A stretch of DNA of 64,000 bases from NCBI GenBank assembly GCA_934249325.1, contig CAKQKW010000006.1, positions 3,491 through 67,490 on the forward strand, in the 5' to 3' direction. The notes beneath the pieces are model-generated. The model was not told where the DNA came from and made no database searches. It saw only the letters and a list, made by a program, of their open reading frames with translations. Shown piece after piece: positions 1-10,086 of this stretch (position 1 is its first letter; the number at the start of each line of letters is the position of its first letter). The stretch is from an uncultured Clostridia bacterium (GTDB taxonomy: Bacteria; Bacillota; Clostridia; Christensenellales; Borkfalkiaceae). The translations under genes and the position numbers were made by a program.

Positions 1-447
1 TTGAAAGAATACGGATTACATACGATTATCCGTTTGCCGCAGGTATTCAAACCGTATGCGAGCGTCAATACCAATCTTTTGTTCTTCAAAAAAGGCGTTG
101 TCAGTCGTGGCGTATGGTTCTATCGTCTTGACTATCCGGAAGGCGTTAAGAGCTTCTCCAAGACTAAGCCGATGCAGGACAAGCATTTTGATCCCGTTCG
201 TGAATGGTGGGAGAACAAAGAAGCCATTGTAGTCGATGGTTTTGACAAGGCACGCTTCTATACACCCGAAGAATTGGAAGCGTTGAACTACGATTTTGAT
301 AAATGCTGTCCGTTTCCTCATGTGGAAGAAGAAATTCTTGAGCCGAAGGACTTGATTGCCAAGTATGAAGCGGAACGCACCGAACTGAATGCCTCTATTG
401 ATCGTATCTTGGCAAGTATCACCGCAAAAATGGAGGAAAATAAATGA
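1..447 (+). CDS. hsdM: Type I restriction-modification DNA methyltransferase subunit HsdM, C-terminal fragment (5' part lies outside the window)
   Basis: The ORF is open to the window edge. The C-terminal sequence (RLPQVFKPYASVNTNLLFFKKG...VWFY) resembles the region after the catalytic motif of N6-adenine HsdM methylases. A 4-nt ATGA overlap links it to the downstream hsdS. Confidence 0.85.
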   Translation: MKEYGLHTIIRLPQVFKPYASVNTNLLFFKKGVVSRGVWFYRLDYPEGVKSFSKTKPMQDKHFDPVREWWENKEAIVVDGFDKARFYTPEELEALNYDFDKCCPFPHVEEEILEPKDLIAKYEAERTELNASIDRILASITAKMEENK

Positions 448-1862
448 CGGCACAAGAATTAAAAAACTCCATTTTGCAGTTGGCGGTTCAAGGGAAACTT
501 GTACCACAATATAAAGAGGATGAACCGGCATCGGAATTGTTGAAGCGAATTGAACAAGAAAAATCCACACTCATTAAGGCAGGCATAATCAAAAAATATA
601 AGGAACTTTCAACTCTCTCTGCAGATGATTGCCCATTTGATATCCCGGAATCGTGGATTTGGATGAAGCTCGGAGATATGTGTCAACTTCTTGACGGTGT
701 AAAAAGAAGGGGAGAAAAACATCCATATCTTGAAGCGAAATATCTTCGTGGTAAAGTTGATGCAACTATACTGAATGAAGGAAAATTTGTAGAAAAAGGC
801 ACTCGATTAATTTTAGTTGATGGTGAAAATTCAGGCGAGGTATTTAACTCAACCCAAGACGGATATATGGGTAGCACTTTTAAGGTGCTGTTTTTTCCCC
901 AAGTTCTGTCTGAGGAATATGTATTGTATTTTCTACTTTTCAAAAGAACGGCTTTCCGCAACAATAAGACTGGAGCCGCCATTCCTCATTTGAACAAAGA
1001 GCTGTTTTTTAATATGCCGTTCCCTATTCCCCCTCTTGCCGAACAAAAGCGCATTGTGGCAAAAATCGAAGAATTGATGCCTTTGATTGAGGAATACGGC
1101 AAGGCAGAAGAACAGTTAACCAAATTGAATGCCGAATTCCCGGACAAGCTCCGCAAATCCATTTTGCAACAAGCCGTTCAAGGTAAGCTTACCGAACGTG
1201 ATCCTGCCGACGAACCCGCCTCTGAACTTCTCAAACGCATTAAGAAGGAAAAAGAAGCTCTCATGAAATCCGGCAAAATCAAAAAAGAAAAGCCTCTGCC
1301 GGAAATTACAGAGGACGAAAAGCCTTTCGATATTCCGGATACTTGGGAGTGGGTAAGATTATCTGATATTTGCAATATATCAGACGGCACACATCAAACT
1401 CCGACTTATGTTGAACATGGTATCCCATTTATTTCGGCACAAAATGTAAAACCATATCGTTTTCTTCCCGAAAATCATAGGGATGTATCGTATGAGGATT
1501 ACTTAGAATACAACAAAAACATATCCCCTGAAAAAGGAGATATTCTGATGGCTCGTGTTGGAGCCGGGATAGGAGAAGCAGCAATAATTGATCAGGATTT
1601 TGAGTTTTCTATCTATGTAAGTTTGACATTAATTAAATGCTATTCAAAAGAATTTGATATGATGTATCTTCTTCATGTGTTAAATTCTCCTATCGGTAGG
1701 AAACTTGCAGAAAAGAAAACATTGGGTAAAGGTGCATCACAAGGTAATTTGAATTTGATATTTATTAGAGAATTTGTATTGCCTATCCCACCACTCGCTG
1801 AACAAAAACGAATTGTCAAACGCGTTGAAGAACTTCTCGCCTTGTGCGATGAATTGAAATGA
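444..1862 (+). CDS. hsdS: Type I restriction-modification specificity subunit HsdS (two target-recognition domains)
   Basis: The conserved helices 'PPLAEQKRIV..EEL' occur twice, and the spacer motif 'SILQ.AVQGKL....DEPASELLKRI..EK' also occurs twice. These flank two variable halves, which is the canonical HsdS layout. Confidence 0.9.
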   Translation: MTAQELKNSILQLAVQGKLVPQYKEDEPASELLKRIEQEKSTLIKAGIIKKYKELSTLSADDCPFDIPESWIWMKLGDMCQLLDGVKRRGEKHPYLEAKYLRGKVDATILNEGKFVEKGTRLILVDGENSGEVFNSTQDGYMGSTFKVLFFPQVLSEEYVLYFLLFKRTAFRNNKTGAAIPHLNKELFFNMPFPIPPLAEQKRIVAKIEELMPLIEEYGKAEEQLTKLNAEFPDKLRKSILQQAVQGKLTERDPADEPASELLKRIKKEKEALMKSGKIKKEKPLPEITEDEKPFDIPDTWEWVRLSDICNISDGTHQTPTYVEHGIPFISAQNVKPYRFLPENHRDVSYEDYLEYNKNISPEKGDILMARVGAGIGEAAIIDQDFEFSIYVSLTLIKCYSKEFDMMYLLHVLNSPIGRKLAEKKTLGKGASQGNLNLIFIREFVLPIPPLAEQKRIVKRVEELLALCDELK

Positions 1863-1872
1863 GGTGAATATA

Positions 1873-3198
1873 ATGATTGGTCTTGATAAAACCGCACAGG
1901 ATGCACTGAGAAATATTTATGCACAATTGGAGAACAATAGCGAGATATCCGTCTCGTCTCCGGGCTATAAAAAAACGACCATTGATTATTTAGTTAGTCA
2001 AGGGTTGCTTGAAAAAATTGATGCAAGTACACTAAGTGGGTGGGCATACATCATTAGACCAACTCATGGTGGAGAAGTAGTGTTTGCTGAGTTATCAGCG
2101 TTACCCTTATCAAAAGTTGACACTTTTATCAAACAAGGCGAAACCATTATGAAAGAGGAATATCATCATGTAACAGACCCCGGATTAGTAATACCTGATT
2201 ATATCAGCGGACCAAAATCAGATCAATGGTTTAACGAAATTAGCATATTTAACAGCCGAATATTAATTAATCATCCGTTACATGACCAGATTGCAGAGGT
2301 ATGTAAAAATCACAAACGGTCATTATCTGCTCACAAAGATATGATGGGATACTTGAAAGCACTCGCTTCAGATAGTGACTTTTGGAGAGAACCTGAACCA
2401 AAGGAGAACCCAATGAAAGTAAGCAGTAAAAGAACAATTGATCAGATGCTGGCAGATGGCATTGAACGTTGTGAGGAATATCTCAATCAGCCAAGCGACG
2501 AGACATACGGAAAAAAGCTATACATTGAAATTACAAGTAGATATGATAGTATTATTAGTGGATTTGGAAATGGTTTATATAATTATTATGCTGACCAACA
2601 CTTTTACGATCCCGAGATATGTGGCGATTCCCTATTACATAATCTGCGTGTATTACATGGAAAGATGGTTGCTTATCAAGCTAAAAAAAATTCGCCTGTT
2701 GCAACAGTAAACAATTCACTCAAACATTCAGAAAGTGATGTCAAAGACAATAAAAAGGTCTTTGTTGTACATGGACATGATAATGAAGCAAAGCAAGAAT
2801 TAGCTCGAGTCCTCGAAAAATCTGATTTTGAGGCAATTATTTTACATGAACAGCCCAATGCCGGAAAAACGATCATTGAAAAAATTGAGCGCTTTTCAGA
2901 TGTGGGTTATGCAATTGTCCTCTATACTGAATGTGATAAAGGGCGTGACAAGAATGTACCGATAGAACAAGAAAAAAGCAGAGCGAGACAGAATGTTGTT
3001 TTTGAGCATGGTTACTTAATTGCAAAGCTCGGCAGAGATCATGTATGTGCATTAGTCAAAGGGGATGTTGAAACTCCTGGAGATATTAGCGGAGTTGTCT
3101 ATGTCCCTATGGATGAGAATGGCGCATGGAAAATACAGTTGGCAAAGGATATGCAAGATGTGGGATTGCCTGTTGATATGAATAAGTTTTGCAGGTAA
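1873..3198 (+). CDS. Protein with an orphan ~290-aa N-terminal region and a C-terminal TIR-like domain (Cap12/PycTIR-type, 'predicted nucleotide-binding protein containing TIR-like domain')
   Basis: The C-terminal ~150 aa read 'KKVFVVHGHDNEAKQELARVLEKSDFEAIILHEQPNAGKTIIEKIE...RARQNVVFEHGYLIAKLGRDHVCALVKGDVETPGDISGVVYVPMD'. This matches the VFIVHGHD / EQ.N.G.TIIEK / R.RQNV.FE.GY signature as I remember it. ATG 1873 lies 6 nt after a GAGGTG Shine-Dalgarno. The ORF track starts at GTG 1864. Confidence 0.7.
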   Translation: MIGLDKTAQDALRNIYAQLENNSEISVSSPGYKKTTIDYLVSQGLLEKIDASTLSGWAYIIRPTHGGEVVFAELSALPLSKVDTFIKQGETIMKEEYHHVTDPGLVIPDYISGPKSDQWFNEISIFNSRILINHPLHDQIAEVCKNHKRSLSAHKDMMGYLKALASDSDFWREPEPKENPMKVSSKRTIDQMLADGIERCEEYLNQPSDETYGKKLYIEITSRYDSIISGFGNGLYNYYADQHFYDPEICGDSLLHNLRVLHGKMVAYQAKKNSPVATVNNSLKHSESDVKDNKKVFVVHGHDNEAKQELARVLEKSDFEAIILHEQPNAGKTIIEKIERFSDVGYAIVLYTECDKGRDKNVPIEQEKSRARQNVVFEHGYLIAKLGRDHVCALVKGDVETPGDISGVVYVPMDENGAWKIQLAKDMQDVGLPVDMNKFCR

Positions 3199-3218
3199 GG
3201 GCTTAATAGGAGGTTCGT

Positions 3219-4340
3219 ATGGATTTTTGTTTTGATGCAGTTATTATCGATACATCAGCATTGGAAAATTTTCAATTTGATTTCTGTGGATGGACGACAA
3301 AAACATTACCGTCGTTTTTTGATTTCCTTAAAGAACAAAATATCCATCTTTTGAACCATCCAGTATTAGACGGAGAAATAAAGAAACATATTGTTCATTC
3401 TCAATTGCTCGAAAAAATCAATGGTTTGCAACAAAATATTCAACGCAATAAAGAGTTTTATAAGCTTATCGGCGTTTCGCCTGAAGATGCCATAAAACGA
3501 TTATCTGAACTTGACATAGAAAAAATGTTGTTATCTGAGTACAACAATATTTTTTGCGATGCTACTATGCTCTCTTTTTCATCACCAGAAATAATTTTTG
3601 AAAAATACTTTAGTTCGTGTCCTCCTTTTTCAGAAAGCGGTAATAAAAAGAATGAATTTCCAGACGCCTTTATTATTGAAAGTGTAAAAGATTATTTGAG
3701 AAAGAATAGATTTCACAATGTTCTTGTCGTGAGCAAAGATTTTGATTGGAAAAAGGCTTTTGAAAAAGTGGAGAGAACATCTTTTTGCGACTCAATCGAT
3801 GATGCTTTGAAAATGGTTCAAAGCACTGAAAAAATTGATTATATAGTATCAGACTGTAAAATAGAAATATTAGAAGCTATACAATTTCAGGCAGAATGCG
3901 AATGCTATAGCCTATCTGATTTCGAGATGCCTGCAAATGCAGATGTCGAAATTATGTCGGTCAAAGTTGGTGATATAAATGATATTATTCCTTTGAGGAT
4001 TACTTCTTCTACGATACTATTTAAATGTTCCGCACACCTTTTTGTAGCTGGCTCAACACGTATTATCAATGAAGATCGTTCTTTCTGGGATCATGAAGAA
4101 AGAGAATACCTAATTATTTCGTATTCAGATATTTCATTTAAAAATGGGCAGGCAAATGTTGAATGTGAGATTACAATAGACTACTCTCCTGAAATCGACG
4201 ATTATACCGCTCAGGTGTCTGATGCAAGAATAATTGAAAAATATGCTATTGATATAGATCTGAATGGCGCTGATATCGATGAAGAAGAATGCTCAGATGA
4301 CCAATTGGCATATGAAGCTCTATTGGACGACCACAGATAA
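3219..4340 (+). CDS. PIN-like domain protein (DUF4935-type) with a ~180-aa C-terminal domain of unknown function
   Basis: The N-terminus 'AVIIDTSALENF' supplies the first acidic residue after a beta strand. 'FPDAFIIESV' and 'VLVVSKDFDW' sit where the later PIN acidic residues are expected. An AGGAGG Shine-Dalgarno lies 6 nt upstream of the ATG. Confidence 0.5.
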   Translation: MDFCFDAVIIDTSALENFQFDFCGWTTKTLPSFFDFLKEQNIHLLNHPVLDGEIKKHIVHSQLLEKINGLQQNIQRNKEFYKLIGVSPEDAIKRLSELDIEKMLLSEYNNIFCDATMLSFSSPEIIFEKYFSSCPPFSESGNKKNEFPDAFIIESVKDYLRKNRFHNVLVVSKDFDWKKAFEKVERTSFCDSIDDALKMVQSTEKIDYIVSDCKIEILEAIQFQAECECYSLSDFEMPANADVEIMSVKVGDINDIIPLRITSSTILFKCSAHLFVAGSTRIINEDRSFWDHEEREYLIISYSDISFKNGQANVECEITIDYSPEIDDYTAQVSDARIIEKYAIDIDLNGADIDEEECSDDQLAYEALLDDHR

Positions 4341-4342
4341 TC

Positions 4343-5149
4343 ATGGAAAATTATTTTATTTTTACCGACGAAGCCGGTGCTTATCAAAAGCGTCCAAGTG
4401 ATGCTCATATCAGAAGTCATCCGTTTTACATAAGAGCAAATGTTTGTATGTCAATTGATGATTATCGACAGTATCAAATTGAAATGCAACGTGTAAACGG
4501 CGAATATGAAATCCCCTTCGACGAGGAAATTAAATGGTCGGATTTATGGAGCAAAGAGAGAAAGAAACCGCGGAATGATCGGATTTCACAAATGTCTTCT
4601 GACCGTTTGAAGGGTTACTATTGTAAAGTTTTTGAGCTTGCCACAGCAAAAAAATCAACAATGTTTTTATTCACTGTAACAGACATAGTCGGACGAACAT
4701 GTGGATGGAGAATCGAACCATTATATAAAGCGCATTTACAAGACGCATTTGAGAGAATTCAGATGGATTTGAATAACACAGATGATTTTGCAACGTTTGT
4801 AATGGATGAATTAAACATAGAAACAATTAAAGAAATAAAGTCCGCTTGCCATGAGTTTACTATTCACGGAGATTTCGTTAAGTATAAAAACCTGTATCAG
4901 GGAGTATTAACTGAAAACAGCTTATATAGCCCTGGAATTCAACTTGCTGATTATGCAGCAGGTGTGATGAATGGATATCTGCGTGGAAAAATTGTTTCAC
5001 CAGGCAACTATCAATTTGCAACGAATCTATTTTCTGATTATATTATTTCCCGAATCAGATCACATTCCAACGGCACAATCGTTGGTTACGGAGTTATTGA
5101 TGTACCGAAAAAAACACCTTTTAGAAAAAAACTTGAAACTGTGTTCTAA
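4343..5149 (+). CDS. DUF3800-type protein (function unknown)
   Basis: The N-terminal 'YFIFTDEAGAY' and C-terminal 'IQLADYAAGV' match the two DUF3800 signature motifs (..D-E-S/A-G.. and Q-x-A-D) as I recall them. The start lies 2 nt after the upstream stop and has no obvious SD, which suggests translational coupling. Confidence 0.55.
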   Translation: MENYFIFTDEAGAYQKRPSDAHIRSHPFYIRANVCMSIDDYRQYQIEMQRVNGEYEIPFDEEIKWSDLWSKERKKPRNDRISQMSSDRLKGYYCKVFELATAKKSTMFLFTVTDIVGRTCGWRIEPLYKAHLQDAFERIQMDLNNTDDFATFVMDELNIETIKEIKSACHEFTIHGDFVKYKNLYQGVLTENSLYSPGIQLADYAAGVMNGYLRGKIVSPGNYQFATNLFSDYIISRIRSHSNGTIVGYGVIDVPKKTPFRKKLETVF

Positions 5150-5169
5150 TATAAAAGGAGAATTGGGTT

Positions 5170-6657
5170 ATGAAAAATAAATTGGTGTCTTTAATAGATA
5201 TGGTTAAACTTTCCCATAATCCTGAGCTTTCCAAAGCGTACATACGCTATTTGTGTGGCCTTAACGACGAGAAACAATATCGTCATCAAGAAATCAAAGA
5301 TATAAAGTCGTTGCTGTCATATATTCCTCTTCCCGAGACAAAACTTTCAGGATTTATTTATGGATATGATGTGCCTCAGTTAAATCGCGAATTCGATTTA
5401 CTTAAGATTACCGAAACTTGTTGTCTAAATATCGAGTTAAAAAGCGTTGATATCGCAGAAGAAAAAATCAGGAAGCAACTTCTTCAAAATCGTCATTATC
5501 TGAAACTGCTGGATAAGGAATTGTTTTTGTTTACATATATATCATCGTCAAACGTTGTATATTCATTAAACGATTGTGGAGAACTCATACAGGTTGATCT
5601 TTCATCACTTTTAGATACTTGGCGTACAATTAAGGATGAAGCAGTTCTTGTTGATTTGGATCAAGTGTTTGCTCCCAAAAACACGCTTGTTTCACCGCTT
5701 AATGCAACAGAAAAATTTTTGAATGGCGATTATATTCTCACAGAAAATCAAGAAAATATCAAAAAAAAGATTCTTTCATATATTACTTCAAATTCAGCTG
5801 ACAGATTCGTAGGGTTAACAGGTGGCCCCGGGACGGGTAAAACACTCGTTATTTATGATCTTGCGAAAGAACTGTCTGTTTCTTGCAGCATCCTAATTGT
5901 ACATAGTGGAATTTTGTGCGCTGGACACGAAGAATTAAATAATAAACTTCAAAATGTAAAAATCATTTCCGCGAAAGAACTACGGTACAGAGAAATCAAT
6001 AACGTTGATATTGTTATAGTAGATGAGGCTCATAGACTCTATACTGAATCTCTCGAAAAAATTGAAAGATGGGTTAAGCGAACAAAAACAATTTGTATTT
6101 TTTCGTATGATGCAGGGCAAATGCTTTCGCGAAGAGAAAAATTCAGAGATACTACAAAAAAGATTAATGTAATTTGTACAAATCATATTTTTAAACTTAC
6201 AAACAAGATTCGTACAAACAAAGAATTGGCATTGTTTATCACCTGCCTTTTTGATCTATCGAAGTATAGGGATGATTACTCTTTCCCAAATGCCAAAATT
6301 ATTTTTGAACCTGATAGAGTAAAAGCTAAAGTATCCATAGAAGCCTTAAAGCAAGCTGGCTACACTTTTATTTCCTATACGCCATCTGTTTTTCGCTCGT
6401 ATCTTGACGATCAGGCTGATGAATTTAATACGCACAATGTTATCGGACAAGAGTTTGATGGAGTGTGTATGATGCTGGATAATCATTTTTCCTATAATTC
6501 CTCAGGAAAATTAGAAGCCACCGAGCACCCAAATCCCGATTATCTTTTCACGCAGTTGCTTTACCAAGGGTTAACGAGAGTTAGAAGTAAAATTGCAATT
6601 GTGGTAACATCAGAAACAATATTACAAAATCTTTTACCTCTAATGAAAAATAATTAA
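5170..6657 (+). CDS. Predicted nuclease-ATPase: N-terminal PD-(D/E)xK (NERD-like) motif plus a P-loop DUF2075/SF1-helicase-like NTPase
   Basis: 'EFDLLKI...CLNIELKS' gives a D..ExK motif. The Walker A is 'GLTGGPGTGKT' and the Walker B/DEAH-like box is 'IVIVDEAHRL'. The C-terminal 'VIGQEFDGVCMM' and 'LYQGLTRVRSKIAIV' resemble SF1 motifs V/VI. An AAGGAG SD lies upstream. Confidence 0.6.
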   Translation: MKNKLVSLIDMVKLSHNPELSKAYIRYLCGLNDEKQYRHQEIKDIKSLLSYIPLPETKLSGFIYGYDVPQLNREFDLLKITETCCLNIELKSVDIAEEKIRKQLLQNRHYLKLLDKELFLFTYISSSNVVYSLNDCGELIQVDLSSLLDTWRTIKDEAVLVDLDQVFAPKNTLVSPLNATEKFLNGDYILTENQENIKKKILSYITSNSADRFVGLTGGPGTGKTLVIYDLAKELSVSCSILIVHSGILCAGHEELNNKLQNVKIISAKELRYREINNVDIVIVDEAHRLYTESLEKIERWVKRTKTICIFSYDAGQMLSRREKFRDTTKKINVICTNHIFKLTNKIRTNKELALFITCLFDLSKYRDDYSFPNAKIIFEPDRVKAKVSIEALKQAGYTFISYTPSVFRSYLDDQADEFNTHNVIGQEFDGVCMMLDNHFSYNSSGKLEATEHPNPDYLFTQLLYQGLTRVRSKIAIVVTSETILQNLLPLMKNN

Positions 6658-6675
6658 TATCAATAAAGATTCATT

Positions 6676-6711
6676 AAAAAGGAAGTCTAATTCGAATTAG
6701 ACTTCCTTTTT
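6676..6711 (+). terminator. Rho-independent terminator closing the hsdM-hsdS-four-gene operon
   Basis: A perfect palindrome 'aaaaaggaagtctaattc/gaattagacttccttttt' ends in a T run, 19 nt after the stop codon at 6657. Confidence 0.8.
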
Positions 6712-6776
6712 GTATGCGGCTGTTAAAAAATTATAGGTAACTTTTTTCTTAAAAACCTTGTAAAACTCATCGTAAA

Positions 6777-6811
6777 ATGTCCCTTTATTATAAAGGGGCA
6801 TTTTTCTTTTT
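6777..6811 (+). terminator. Second hairpin plus T-tract (terminator-like) just outside the left end of the IS
   Basis: 'atgtccctttat-tta-ataaaggggcat' forms an 11-bp stem and is followed by 'tttttcttttt'. Confidence 0.5.
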
Positions 6812-6814
6812 GCG

Positions 6815-7896
6815 GTGAATTATACTATTAAGTGCAACACCTAAGCGAAAAAAAAGAAGTTCATATAAATCTATGGTATAATGGTTTTAAGCACAAAACA
6901 AAAACACCAGGGAGAAATATATGAACTATAAACATTTTACCATAGAAGAACGTTGTTGTCTACGAGAATATTACATAAAAGGAAAAAGTTATAGAGAAAT
7001 AGCAAGGTTACTCGGTAGAAACGTAAGTTCGGTTTCAAGAGAGTTGCGAAGAAATTGCACGTTTTACAGAGATATTCCGAGATATTACCCATATACTGCT
7101 CAACGCAAAAGTAATTTAAGAAACAGTTATCGCCATCGAGGAATGTTTTGGAGTAAAGAAGTAATCGACTACATCGACGAAAAATTATCGCTGACTTGGT
7201 CGCCCGAACAAATAGCAAATACTCCATGCGAATTAAAAATACCTTCATTTAAGACGATTTATAGGTGGATAGACGAAGGATATTTGCGTTCAACGTTAAA
7301 AAATTTACGAAGAAAAGGCAAAACACGAAAAAGATTAGGAAACGGCGGAAGATTTACCACAGGTAAATCTATACGAAAGAGAGATAAAAGCGTATATACA
7401 AGAAAAGAATTCGGACATTGGGAAGCAGATACAGTTGTAAGCGGCAAAGGAAAAGCAAAAGCGTGTTTTGCAACGCTGGCGGAAAGAAAAACGAGATTTT
7501 ACATAGCAGTGAAAATACCTGATAGAAACGGCGAAACAATGGCAAACGCAATCATAAAAGCGTTGTCGATACTTCCGAAAGGAGCGGTGAAAACGATCAC
7601 TTGCGACAGAGGAAGCGAATTCGCGGGTTGGAAAAAAATAGAAGAAGAACTGCATTGTAGCATGTATTTTGCCGACCCGTATTGCGCGTGGCAAAAAGGT
7701 ACGAATGAAAACCTGAACGGATTGCTTCGCGAATTCTATCCCAAAGGTCACAATCTCGAAAGAGTATCCGAAAAAACACTAAAAAAGAATCTGGCGTTAA
7801 TTAACGCCAGACCCAAGAAAGTTTTACACTACCAAAAACCGGTAGATTTATTTAACTTTTTTCTCACTAAGTGTTGCACTTAGTTTGACAATTCAC
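6815..7896 (+). mobile_element. IS30-family insertion sequence, apparently intact (~1.08 kb)
   Basis: A single transposase ORF is flanked by 26-bp imperfect terminal inverted repeats. The left IR (6815-6840) is gtgaattatactattaagtgcaacac. The reverse complement of the right IR (7871-7896) is gtgaattgtcaaactaagtgcaacac. By hand alignment 20 of 26 positions are identical. Confidence 0.85.
6921..7883 (+). CDS. IS30-family transposase (HTH plus DDE)
   Basis: The N-terminal HTH 'SYREIARLLGRNVSSVSRELRRN' is present. DDE landmarks are 'HWEADTV', 'TCDRGSEF' and 'NENLNGLLREFYPKG'. The stop codon lies inside the right IR. Confidence 0.9.
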   Translation: MNYKHFTIEERCCLREYYIKGKSYREIARLLGRNVSSVSRELRRNCTFYRDIPRYYPYTAQRKSNLRNSYRHRGMFWSKEVIDYIDEKLSLTWSPEQIANTPCELKIPSFKTIYRWIDEGYLRSTLKNLRRKGKTRKRLGNGGRFTTGKSIRKRDKSVYTRKEFGHWEADTVVSGKGKAKACFATLAERKTRFYIAVKIPDRNGETMANAIIKALSILPKGAVKTITCDRGSEFAGWKKIEEELHCSMYFADPYCAWQKGTNENLNGLLREFYPKGHNLERVSEKTLKKNLALINARPKKVLHYQKPVDLFNFFLTKCCT

Positions 7897-7917
7897 TCTG
7901 TTTATCTGAATTTTCGC

Positions 7918-9903
7918 TTACTTATTCTTTAAATTGTTTATTGTCTTTTTGACCGTTTCGACTACGTTTTCAACGGTGAAACCGAATTTTTCGAGAAGGG
8001 CGGAGTAGGGGGCGGACGCTCCGAACGTGTCCATTCCGATAACGTCTCCGTCTAATCCGACGTATTTGTACCAAGGCGATTTTGCGCCTGCTTCGATTGC
8101 GATTCTCGCTCTTATCGACGGGTTTAAAACGCTGTTTTTATACGTTTGCTTCTGTTTATCGAAAAGTTCCATACAGGGCATCGATACGACCGTTACGTCT
8201 ATTCCTTCGAGCCTTAACGCGTCTCTCGCCTTCATCGCGAGTTCGACCTCCGACCCCGAAGCCATCAGTATTGCGTCCGAACGGTTTTTCGCCGAACGGG
8301 AAAGAACGTAAGCGCCCTTTAACGCATTGCCGTTCGATTCTTCGTATTGCGGAAGATTTTGTCTCGATAAAACTATACAGGTCGGTCCCTCTTCTTCGAG
8401 GGCGGTTATCCACGCGCAGACCGTCTCTTTTCCGTCCGCGGGACGGAATACTTTCATATTCGGTATCGCGCGAAGTCCCGCAAGTTGTTCGACGGGTTGA
8501 TGCGTTGGTCCGTCCTCGCCGACGCCTATAGAGTCGTGAGTGAGAATATACGTTACGTTTCTGTTCATTAAGGCGGACAAACGCATTGCGTTTTTCATAT
8601 AGTCCGAGAAAATGAAGAAGGTCGCGCAGTAAGGTCTCAAACCGCCGTGAAGCGAAATGCCGTTGCAAATCGCCGCCATAGCGTGTTCTCTTATTCCGAA
8701 GTGGAAATTCGTTCCGCTTCTGTTTTCGGCAGAGTAGTAGGTTCTGTTTTTCATTACCGACTTGTTCGACGGACCCAAATCCGCGCTGCCGCCGACGAGG
8801 TTAGGTATAAGATCGGCGAGGATATTGAGAACTTTCGAACTTGTGTTTCGCGTCGCGTCGGGCTTCGGAAAATCGTAAAGTTGCTTTTCTTTAAAGAAAT
8901 TCGGGAGTTTTCCCTTCATATAGTCGGAATATTTCTGAGCGAGTTCGGGGTATGCCGCCTGATACGCTTTAAACGTTCTCTTCCATATTCTTTGAATTCG
9001 TATTCCCTTCGTGGTATATCTGTGGTGATATTTCTTTACTTCTTCGGGAACGGTGAACGGCGGATAGTCGTAACCGAGGTTTTCTCTGAGTCCCTTGATG
9101 CCGTCCGCTCCGAGCGGCGCTCCGTGAGTGTCTGCGGAACCCGCTTTCGGCGAGCCGTAACCTATTACCGTTCTGACGATTATGAGCGACGGTTTTTCTT
9201 TTTCCGCTTTCGCTTTCGCTATTGCTTTCGCAATCGCCTTCACGTCGTTGCCGTCTTTGACGTTTATGACTTGCCAGCCCTGAGCCGCGTGGCGTTTTCC
9301 CACGTCCTCTGTGAACGCGCCGTCGGTATCGCCTTCTATCGTAATATTATTTTTGTCGTATAAAACTATCAACTTGCCGAGTTTTAAAGTGCCTGCGAGA
9401 GAAGCCGCCTCGTACTCGATGCCTTCCATCATACAACCGTCTCCGCAGAGCGCGTAAGTGTAGTGGTCAACCACGTCGTAATCGGGTTTGTTGAAAGTTG
9501 CCGCTAAAATCGTTTCGGCTATCGCCATACCGACCGCATTCGCTATGCCTTGACCCAAAGGTCCGGTAGTCGTTTCTACGCCGGGGGTAACTCCGTATTC
9601 GGGATGACCGGGTGTTTTCGAGCCTAATTGCCGAAAATTCTTTATGTCCTCCATAGATACGTCGTATCCGAACAAATGAAGAAGAGAGTAGTAGAGCATA
9701 GAGCCGTGACCTGCCGACAAAACAAATCTGTCTCTGTCTGCGAAGTCGGGATCTTTCGGATTGAATTTAAGGTGTTTTGCAAAAAGCGCGTAAGCGATCG
9801 GCGCACTTCCGAGCGGAAGCCCGGGGTGACCCGATTTCGCTTTTTCGATTGCCTCTGCGGAAAGAACCCTCAGCGTGTTTACGGAAAGTTGACTTATATC
9901 CAT
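7918..9903 (-). CDS. tkt: Transketolase
   Basis: Matches include '[11 protein letters not shown]', 'GDGCMMEG' and the C-terminal domain. The start is chosen at the internal Met ([12 protein letters not shown]) because an AGGAG SD precedes it. The ORF track extends 22 codons further, to 9969. Confidence 0.9.
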
Positions 9904-10086
9904 TAGTAAATCTCCTGTGTGCGTCGTAAGAAACGTACTTAAACCCATTATACATTTTTTTTTCGCCATTTACAAGCAAAAAGGGGTTGTTTTCAGCCCG
10001 ACTTTAAATTTTTCATTTTATACTCCCGACAGTCGGGGAAAATACGCCGCATAATTTTTAATTTCATCAAAAAACCATTATATCGC

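Follow-up and report, generated by a model that had tools for sequence, protein, structure and literature searches.

Candidate immunity genes stacked behind a type I restriction-modification operon, with a DUF3800 gene as its probable companion

The operon and genes A, B and D

The left end of the window, by which we mean the whole 64,000-nucleotide stretch of contig CAKQKW010000006.1 (uncultured Clostridia bacterium) that was analysed, carries the 3' part of a type I restriction-modification (R-M) operon followed by four further genes, here called A, B, C and D. A preliminary description, made from the letters alone, had proposed that these four constitute a single undescribed defence system wired to the R-M genes, and had named two or three stacked mini-systems as a fallback. 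This report concerns which of the four genes belong together and which of them belong with restriction.

When the coordinates were re-derived, six open reading frames (ORFs) were obtained, all on the plus strand, at 1-447, 444-1862, 1864/1873-3198, 3219-4340, 4343-5149 and 5170-6657. The junctions agree with those first described: -4 nt between hsdM and hsdS (an ATGA overlap), 10 nt between hsdS and A, 20 nt between A and B, 2 nt between B and C, and 20 nt between C and D. Shine-Dalgarno sites were likewise found where they had been reported, with GAGGTG before A, GGAGG before B and AGGAG before D, and none lies 5' of C, which starts immediately after the stop codon of B at the 2-nt junction. 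Because related contigs use the ATG at 1873, giving a protein of 441 aa, this codon is most likely the start of A rather than the GTG at 1864. The operon ends at an intrinsic terminator on the plus strand (6676-6711), whose perfect hairpin (-21.2 kcal/mol, z = -5.5 vs shuffles) precedes a T-run. Its strength is as had been claimed, but it is not the only hairpin, as a second one with a T-run lies at 6774-6804, 5' of an IS30 transposase gene. Because the junctions are tight and the terminator single, the hsd genes and A to D are probably carried on one transcript. A promoter scan gave no enrichment (32 sites vs 26.9 expected) and is uninformative on internal promoters.

The first ORF is the 3' end of the type I methyltransferase gene hsdM (1-447, plus strand; Pfam N6_Mtase 7e-8, PADLOC MTase_I 4.5e-32), whose start lies upstream of the window, and the second is hsdS, the gene for the specificity subunit (444-1862, plus strand; Pfam Methylase_S 9.6e-34, PADLOC Specificity_I 2.4e-126). 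The locus had been described as lacking hsdR, which is true inside the window alone, and only because of the window edge. A metagenome contig (L001) that is 100% identical to window positions 1-6998, with zero mismatches over 6,998 bp, contains the full 482-aa hsdM and, directly 5' of it, a 772-aa hsdR (HSDR_N, ResIII, EcoEI_R_C). With hsdM' and hsdS in the window and hsdR in L001, a complete type I system is present (hsdR-M-S order), and positions 1-6711 of the window are its 3' two-thirds plus the extension. The same cassette is bordered by hsdS alleles of ~70% identity in L005 and L169. In related operons hsdM and hsdS are seen fused in a single ORF of 737-741 aa (L092:3847-6063, L188:2788-5001). 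Further 5' of hsdR, L001 carries GIY-YIG/DUF4357, Fic, HTH and serine-recombinase genes. A GIY-YIG/DUF4357 gene is found 5' of hsdR in three islands with differing type I families (L001:5368-6207, L127:356-1186, L147:365-1201), possibly as a second constant companion of hsd operons or as a backbone marker.

On the other side, a gene for an IS30-family transposase (6921-7883, plus strand; NCBIfam transpos_IS30 1.9e-79) lies outside the cassette. GC content rises from 0.30-0.39 inside the island to 0.47-0.52 from ~8000, where a transketolase gene (7918-9969, minus strand) adjoins the rise, and related metagenome contigs of the element break off near the transposase or the second hairpin. The transposase gene and the GC jump at ~8000 together place the right-hand limit of a horizontally acquired low-GC island here.

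The domains first assigned to A, B, C and D (TIR-like, PIN-like, DUF3800 and nuclease-ATPase, respectively) were all recovered by profile searches, and the motifs quoted for them are present in the sequence. Gene A (1873-3198, plus strand; 441 aa) encodes an uncharacterised N-terminal domain of ~270 aa, then a C-terminal TIR-like domain of the Cap12/PycTIR type (Pfam CAP12-PCTIR_TIR 1.5e-38, residues 298-417); a sequence search against PDB linked A weakly to Cap12 (structure 9lmq). In PADLOC, A matches the single-gene candidate PDC-S35 (6.5e-82; residues 198-442 vs positions 28-264/265 of one model). Its family comprises >6,500 clusters. One homologue of 51% identity (P0279) is flanked by BREX (PglX-PglZ-BrxL) and Hachiman (HamA/HamB), with no hsd, B, C or D, so that both the model match and occurrence as a lone gene place A in PDC-S35. 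In two other proteins (P0240 and P0248), an N-terminal ~270 aa like that of A (window 1873-2680; 82-84% identical) is fused to a canonical TIR/TIR_2 domain. The presence of this N-terminal domain on different TIR types is therefore the pattern expected of a modular sensor-effector, with a putative A-type sensor conserved and the effector domain exchanged. We take A to be a predicted stand-alone sensor-effector of the PDC-S35 candidate type, whose TIR-like domain would deplete NAD+. A literature search on PDC-S35 found nothing relevant.

Gene B (3219-4340, plus strand; 373 aa) combines an N-terminal PIN_12 ribonuclease (RNase) domain (Pfam 1e-19; 72 bits vs a cut-off of 32) with a C-terminal domain on a long beta-sheet. 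In its predicted structure (pLDDT 89) the PIN half resembles the PIN protein PAE2754. Among 32 sequences the acidic residues E53, D149 and D174 are invariant and D11 is kept in at least 90%. The C-terminal domain gave weak fold matches alone, to lipid-binding (TULIP/JHBP-like) proteins, and these are not relied upon. B has no PADLOC match, and a literature search on PIN_12 found nothing relevant.

A survey of one genome per GTDB species returned 304 relatives of B, and neighbourhoods were counted at the best 80 loci (23-48% identity), which range from Clostridia to Gammaproteobacteria, Bacteroidota and Cyanobacteria. C, D and hsdS are neighbours at 0 of these best 80 of 304 loci, and an A-like gene is missing from 77 of them. 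They share no conserved neighbour family, the largest shared one varying in position and strand; the usual neighbours are island genes such as AbiH, BpuSI-type R-M, UvrD helicase and HNH nucleases. A VapBC-type toxin-antitoxin identity was ruled out for B, a two-domain protein of 373 aa with no small conserved partner at the same 80 loci. Its distribution argues for a stand-alone mobile PIN RNase gene, whose product would cleave RNA, the C-terminal part being a putative sensing domain.

Two arrangements around B homologues were also observed. In three Psychrobacter loci (L037:2285-3163, L041:245-1075, L060:489-1340) a short CAP12-PCTIR_TIR gene lies directly 5' of the B homologue on the same strand; its product, of 276-292 aa, has the TIR-like domain at the N terminus, and this is a second, distant adjacency of TIR-like and PIN_12 genes. 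In five gammaproteobacterial genera (L057:11073-12041, L061, L062, L065, L077) the end of the B homologue is overlapped by a co-directional AbiH gene lying 3' of it, and in this clade the two may form a two-gene unit.

Gene D (5170-6657, plus strand; 495 aa) encodes a nuclease-helicase of the Nhi/AbiO family, a single-gene defence system. It matches the PADLOC models AbiO (3.1e-139; residues 6-490 vs profile positions 4-465 of 468) and Nhi (9.3e-134) at full length, as well as Pfam SLFN-g3_helicase and AAA, and is of the P-loop/SF1 helicase type. The helicase motifs (Walker A GPGTGKT and DEAH at 285-288) and the PD-(D/E)xK-type nuclease residues (D76/E89/K91) are all invariant in an alignment of four sequences. 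Homologues in IMG/VR (33-47% identity) occur as lone genes, with no A, B, C or hsd nearby at 20 of 20 loci, and further homologues are found on 219 plasmids, many from Bacillus and Enterococcus. A PDB sequence search with D gave no match.

Partial sets and the exchange of cassettes

Related islands contain the genes in partial sets: A-C-D without B (L089), A-C (L093, L183), B-C (L096), A-B-C without D (L094, L095, L169-174), and a different slot gene followed by C-D (L099, L150). Recombinase, ParB and NikA genes lie 3' of C in L169-174. Compared with L169, the window is a patchwork. Identity is ~100% at ~1320-2340 and ~2900-4420, and falls to 64-76% in a patch inside A and from ~4430, just inside C, onward; B is therefore 99% identical between the two while the adjacent C is 73.5% identical.

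The interval from hsdS to C behaves as a slot for which we found ~18 different contents, from 0 to ~3.8 kb. These include a DUF6173 gene with a PDC-S32-like gene, an ORC/CDC6-like ATPase, an LmuA-like gene, a DUF4145 protein, TIR_2, AbiTii, a Schlafen AlbA_2 protein (PDC-S50 1.8e-122), an SpbK-like TIR and a SEC-C protein. Several slot genes have no Pfam family, and those also searched against PADLOC were likewise unmatched. At least five different cassettes occur inside a single cluster of C proteins (at least 80% identity). A second variable position lies 3' of C, occupied by D, by a YhcG nuclease with a serine recombinase, by an AAA_13/S24 protein or by unrelated genes. The AAA_13/S24 protein seen after C in L147 (L147:10816-13566) is a 916-aa fusion of an AAA_13 ATPase and a Peptidase_S24 domain; AAA_13 is, we presume, the ATPase family of the RloC/PrrC anticodon nucleases. 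Junctions in the slot leave no room for attachment sites, and the breakpoints lie inside conserved coding sequence. This points to homologous recombination, with cassettes exchanged through the conserved flanks.

These partial sets bear on the proposal that A, B, C and D are one multi-effector abortive-infection system, co-transcribed with hsdMS and licensed by them. The co-directional tight packing, the one terminator and the recurrence of the same six-gene string in identical or near-identical contigs would fit such a system, but the identical contigs are not independent, because they represent the same element. Beyond that element the genes are found as A-C-D, A-C, B-C, A-B-C, or C-D with other slot genes, and homologues of B, D and A stand alone elsewhere, with D and A fitting single-gene models. 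We consider a single system highly improbable. Outside this lineage the four are not found together, and the PADLOC models assigned two of them, D to a described system and A to a predicted candidate; by its own account the preliminary description would yield to outcomes of this kind. Its fallback of two or three stacked mini-systems is supported, A, B and D being distributed independently of one another.

Two-gene systems within the cassette, A with B and/or C with D, are retained as an alternative because of the three Psychrobacter loci and the recurrent adjacency of C and D. A and B occur together in two diverged lineages (the window, and L094 and L169 with an A of 75-85% identity), and C and D are adjacent in the window, L089, L099, L142 and L150, diverging in parallel (86/97, 68/64, 54/41 and 53/41% identity). 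Yet an A-like gene accompanies B so rarely in the GTDB survey, B is found without A (L096), A is found without B (L089, L093, L180-183), and C is absent from all 20 of the D loci. Most C loci lack D, which in one C cluster at 80% identity is replaced by the AAA_13/S24 gene or others, and published work has Nhi acting alone (PMC11084316, PMC10732053). We consider two-gene systems of either kind unlikely.

Gene C and its tie to restriction operons

Gene C (4343-5149, plus strand; 268 aa) is a DUF3800 gene with a predicted RNase HII-like fold. Membership in DUF3800 is indicated by Pfam (1.1e-8; 36.4 bits vs a cut-off of 21), by the predicted RNase H-like fold, and by the DE and QxxD motifs. The structure model (pLDDT 84.7) has RNase HII 1EKE as its best PDB match (E = 3e-5) and resembles archaeal and human RNase H2, in agreement with published predictions for DUF3800 (PMC7736814, PMC10910872). 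Residues D9, E10, D155, Q200 and D203 are invariant among 29 homologues.

To follow C beyond the window, 80 metagenome loci were collected with a C profile (51-86% identity), of which 56 have at least 4 kb upstream. At 53 of these 56, hsdM/hsdS lie 5' of C on the same strand, compared with hsdS at 0 of 80 B loci; the other three look like deletions or replacements. The link to the R-M genes that had been proposed for the whole cassette thus holds for C and not for the other genes. Clustered at 80% identity, the C proteins form 17 groups, in all of which the hsd link is present; at 65% they form 7. Three type I families are represented among the partner operons: that of the window (hsdR 81-92%, hsdM 84-98%), a relative at 49-51%, and a family with a 1012-aa hsdR, for which tblastn detected no similarity of hsdR/M to those of the window. 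C evolves much faster than its partners, being 53% identical where hsdR is 81%. It is always co-directional with hsd and is often translationally coupled. One locus (L175) reads hsdR-M-S-C with an empty slot; in L176-179 the order is reversed, with C directly 5' of hsdR-M-S among unrelated flanking genes; and the link is also present in L183, L187 and L188. No conserved partner was found 3' of C, the 299-aa and 264-aa followers in different lineages being unrelated. C had no match in the phage collection and one distant match among plasmids, and in the papers searched that mention DUF3800 no link to restriction-modification was found. The neighbourhoods argue that type I operons in related elements have C as their constant companion on the 3' side, and that C is the one gene of the four that belongs with the restriction operon.

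Two arrangements were seen beside these. In L176:8001-16828 (also in L177-L179) the operon ends in an integrase gene and inverted extra hsdS copies, which gives it the look of a phase-variable specificity shufflon. On a prophage-like contig (L217:3346-9807), an N6_N4 methyltransferase and a ResIII/DEAD helicase, together type III-like, are followed by three small genes, a distant DUF3800 gene and an integrase gene, and type I systems may not be the only ones with a slot and a DUF3800 gene arranged in this way.

Taken together, we judge it probable, at roughly three chances in four, that A to D are stacked, independently assorting immunity modules which extend a complete type I operon on a low-GC mobile island, and that C alone belongs with hsd. 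Related elements would keep hsdRMS and C and swap the genes between hsdS and C and after C.

Several points weigh against this. The case is built from sequence, gene neighbourhoods and predicted folds. The pair C and D recurs in five lineages, diverging roughly in parallel, and with the CAP12-TIR gene beside B in Psychrobacter some pairwise cooperation is conceivable. The C loci come mostly from related gut Clostridia, with just the 7 clusters at 65% identity, and the number of independent observations is therefore well below 53. A distant relative of C in Sphingobacterium (L216) lies beside AAA_21/RloB on a conjugative transposon, and one on a Thermococcus (archaeal) plasmid lies within an AbiE/NACHT island, neither with restriction genes. 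That the GIY-YIG/DUF4357 gene also recurs 5' of hsdR (L001, L127, L147) raises the possibility that C is a backbone gene conserved in these elements and not a partner in function.

Carried through, this last point would make C a passenger that belongs to the conserved backbone or flank of a single family of integrative elements and marks the edge of a recombination hotspot, functionally unconnected to the type I enzyme. The origin of most of its loci in related gut Firmicutes, the GIY-YIG/DUF4357 gene on the opposite side of the operon, the recombinase, ParB and NikA genes after C in L169-174, and the distant relatives without restriction genes are all in its favour. However, the link persists where flanks and gene order have changed (L176-179) and spans three type I families, one of them with hsdR/M beyond the reach of tblastn; a distant relative follows a type III-like Mtase and Res helicase operon (L217); and C keeps its orientation and frequent translational coupling to hsd throughout. 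On balance we think a passenger role rather unlikely, and hold to the view that C is the partner of the restriction operon within a stack of independent modules.

A wider proposal is put forward tentatively, as possible but somewhat short of an even chance. The RNase HII-like DUF3800 clade might be a dedicated fourth component of ATP-dependent R-M operons, mostly type I and possibly type III, a reserve called into action once restriction is blocked. The hsdS-DUF3800 interval might then be a recombination-driven slot that lets gut Firmicutes trade abortive-infection genes without losing the promoter and terminator of the operon.

The C-restriction link is the sole new lead from this locus, with the function of C inferred. 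DUF3800 is a widespread orphan domain that recurs beside immune modules (retrons, Cas12a2/a3, Cas13), and a clade locked to type I operons offers a simple, genetically tractable setting for its function. The hsdS-C slot is in addition a catalogue of candidate defence genes, several without a Pfam or PADLOC family.

Comparison with known systems

Several comparisons concern A and D. As the preliminary description had stated, the locus is not CBASS, Pycsar or Thoeris, because it encodes neither a cyclase nor a ThsB or SAVED/SLOG partner. The C-terminal domain of A fits the CAP12-PCTIR_TIR and PDC-S35 models, as in PDC-S35, Cap12 (CBASS) and PycTIR (Pycsar). Unlike PDC-S35, whose models have 231-278 positions and which is itself predicted rather than validated, A has an extra N-terminal domain of ~200-270 aa. 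A was rejected as a CBASS or Pycsar effector, as the operon has no CD-NTase or pyrimidine cyclase and the NCBIfam Cap12 models gave 29.5 bits vs a cut-off of 450; Thoeris was rejected as no SIR2, SLOG or ThsA match occurs at the locus. In Nhi, one protein both detects the replication intermediates of phages and degrades them, and it responds to phage SSB (PMC11084316, PMC10732053). D resembles Nhi of Staphylococcus epidermidis and lactococcal AbiO in matching both models end to end, in having the same motif sets and in its lone-gene distribution, and it would degrade phage DNA as the described Nhi/AbiO family does with replication intermediates. D is best classed as a new member of a known family and A as a member of a predicted one, with B uncharacterised.

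DUF3800 proteins have been described beside other immune modules, as a retron type VII effector, as TPR-DUF3800 with Cas12a2/a3 and as Csx32 in Cas13 CASK loci (PMC7736814, PMC10910872, PMC13594972, bioRxiv 10.64898/2026.08.25.746378). C shares with them the Pfam family, the predicted RNase H2-like fold and the N-terminal DE motif, but its partner is a type I R-M system, and reverse transcriptase (RT), CRISPR and a TPR domain are all absent. In contrast to the retron-linked clade, C keeps QxxD intact (Q200, D203). A role for C as a retron type VII effector was rejected: there is no RT domain at the locus, and an Rfam scan of window positions 1-9000 found no DUF3800-associated RNA motif, just two sub-threshold matches to miRNA models on the terminator hairpins.

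The nucleases PrrC (EcoprrI) and RloC are embedded in type I R-M loci and fire when restriction is inhibited (review PMC12707154). C is similarly an accessory nuclease gene that points the same way as a type I operon and is kept inside it or at its end. It differs in having a DUF3800/RNase HII-like fold in place of an ABC-ATPase and an anticodon nuclease domain, and in lying after hsdS or before hsdR, not between hsdS and hsdR. C was rejected as a PrrC/RloC anticodon nuclease, as neither defining domain is present and the likeness is one of position in a type I locus only. That position nevertheless suggests, by analogy, a guardian role. On the model of PrrC, C would serve as a reserve nuclease tied to the type I enzyme: silent for as long as restriction is active, it would be set free once a phage disables restriction.

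Variable defence cargo beside hsd, exchanged by recombination, has been described in S. aureus vSa-alpha/beta and in the E. coli immigration control region (PMC12829572, PMC12707154). Here too variable defence genes adjoin type I hsd and are recombination-exchanged, but the cargo sits inside the operon frame, from hsdS to the terminal DUF3800 gene, with junctions of a few nt. The theme of accessory genes in type I loci is already known; what is new is the link between C and restriction, together with the in-operon slot.

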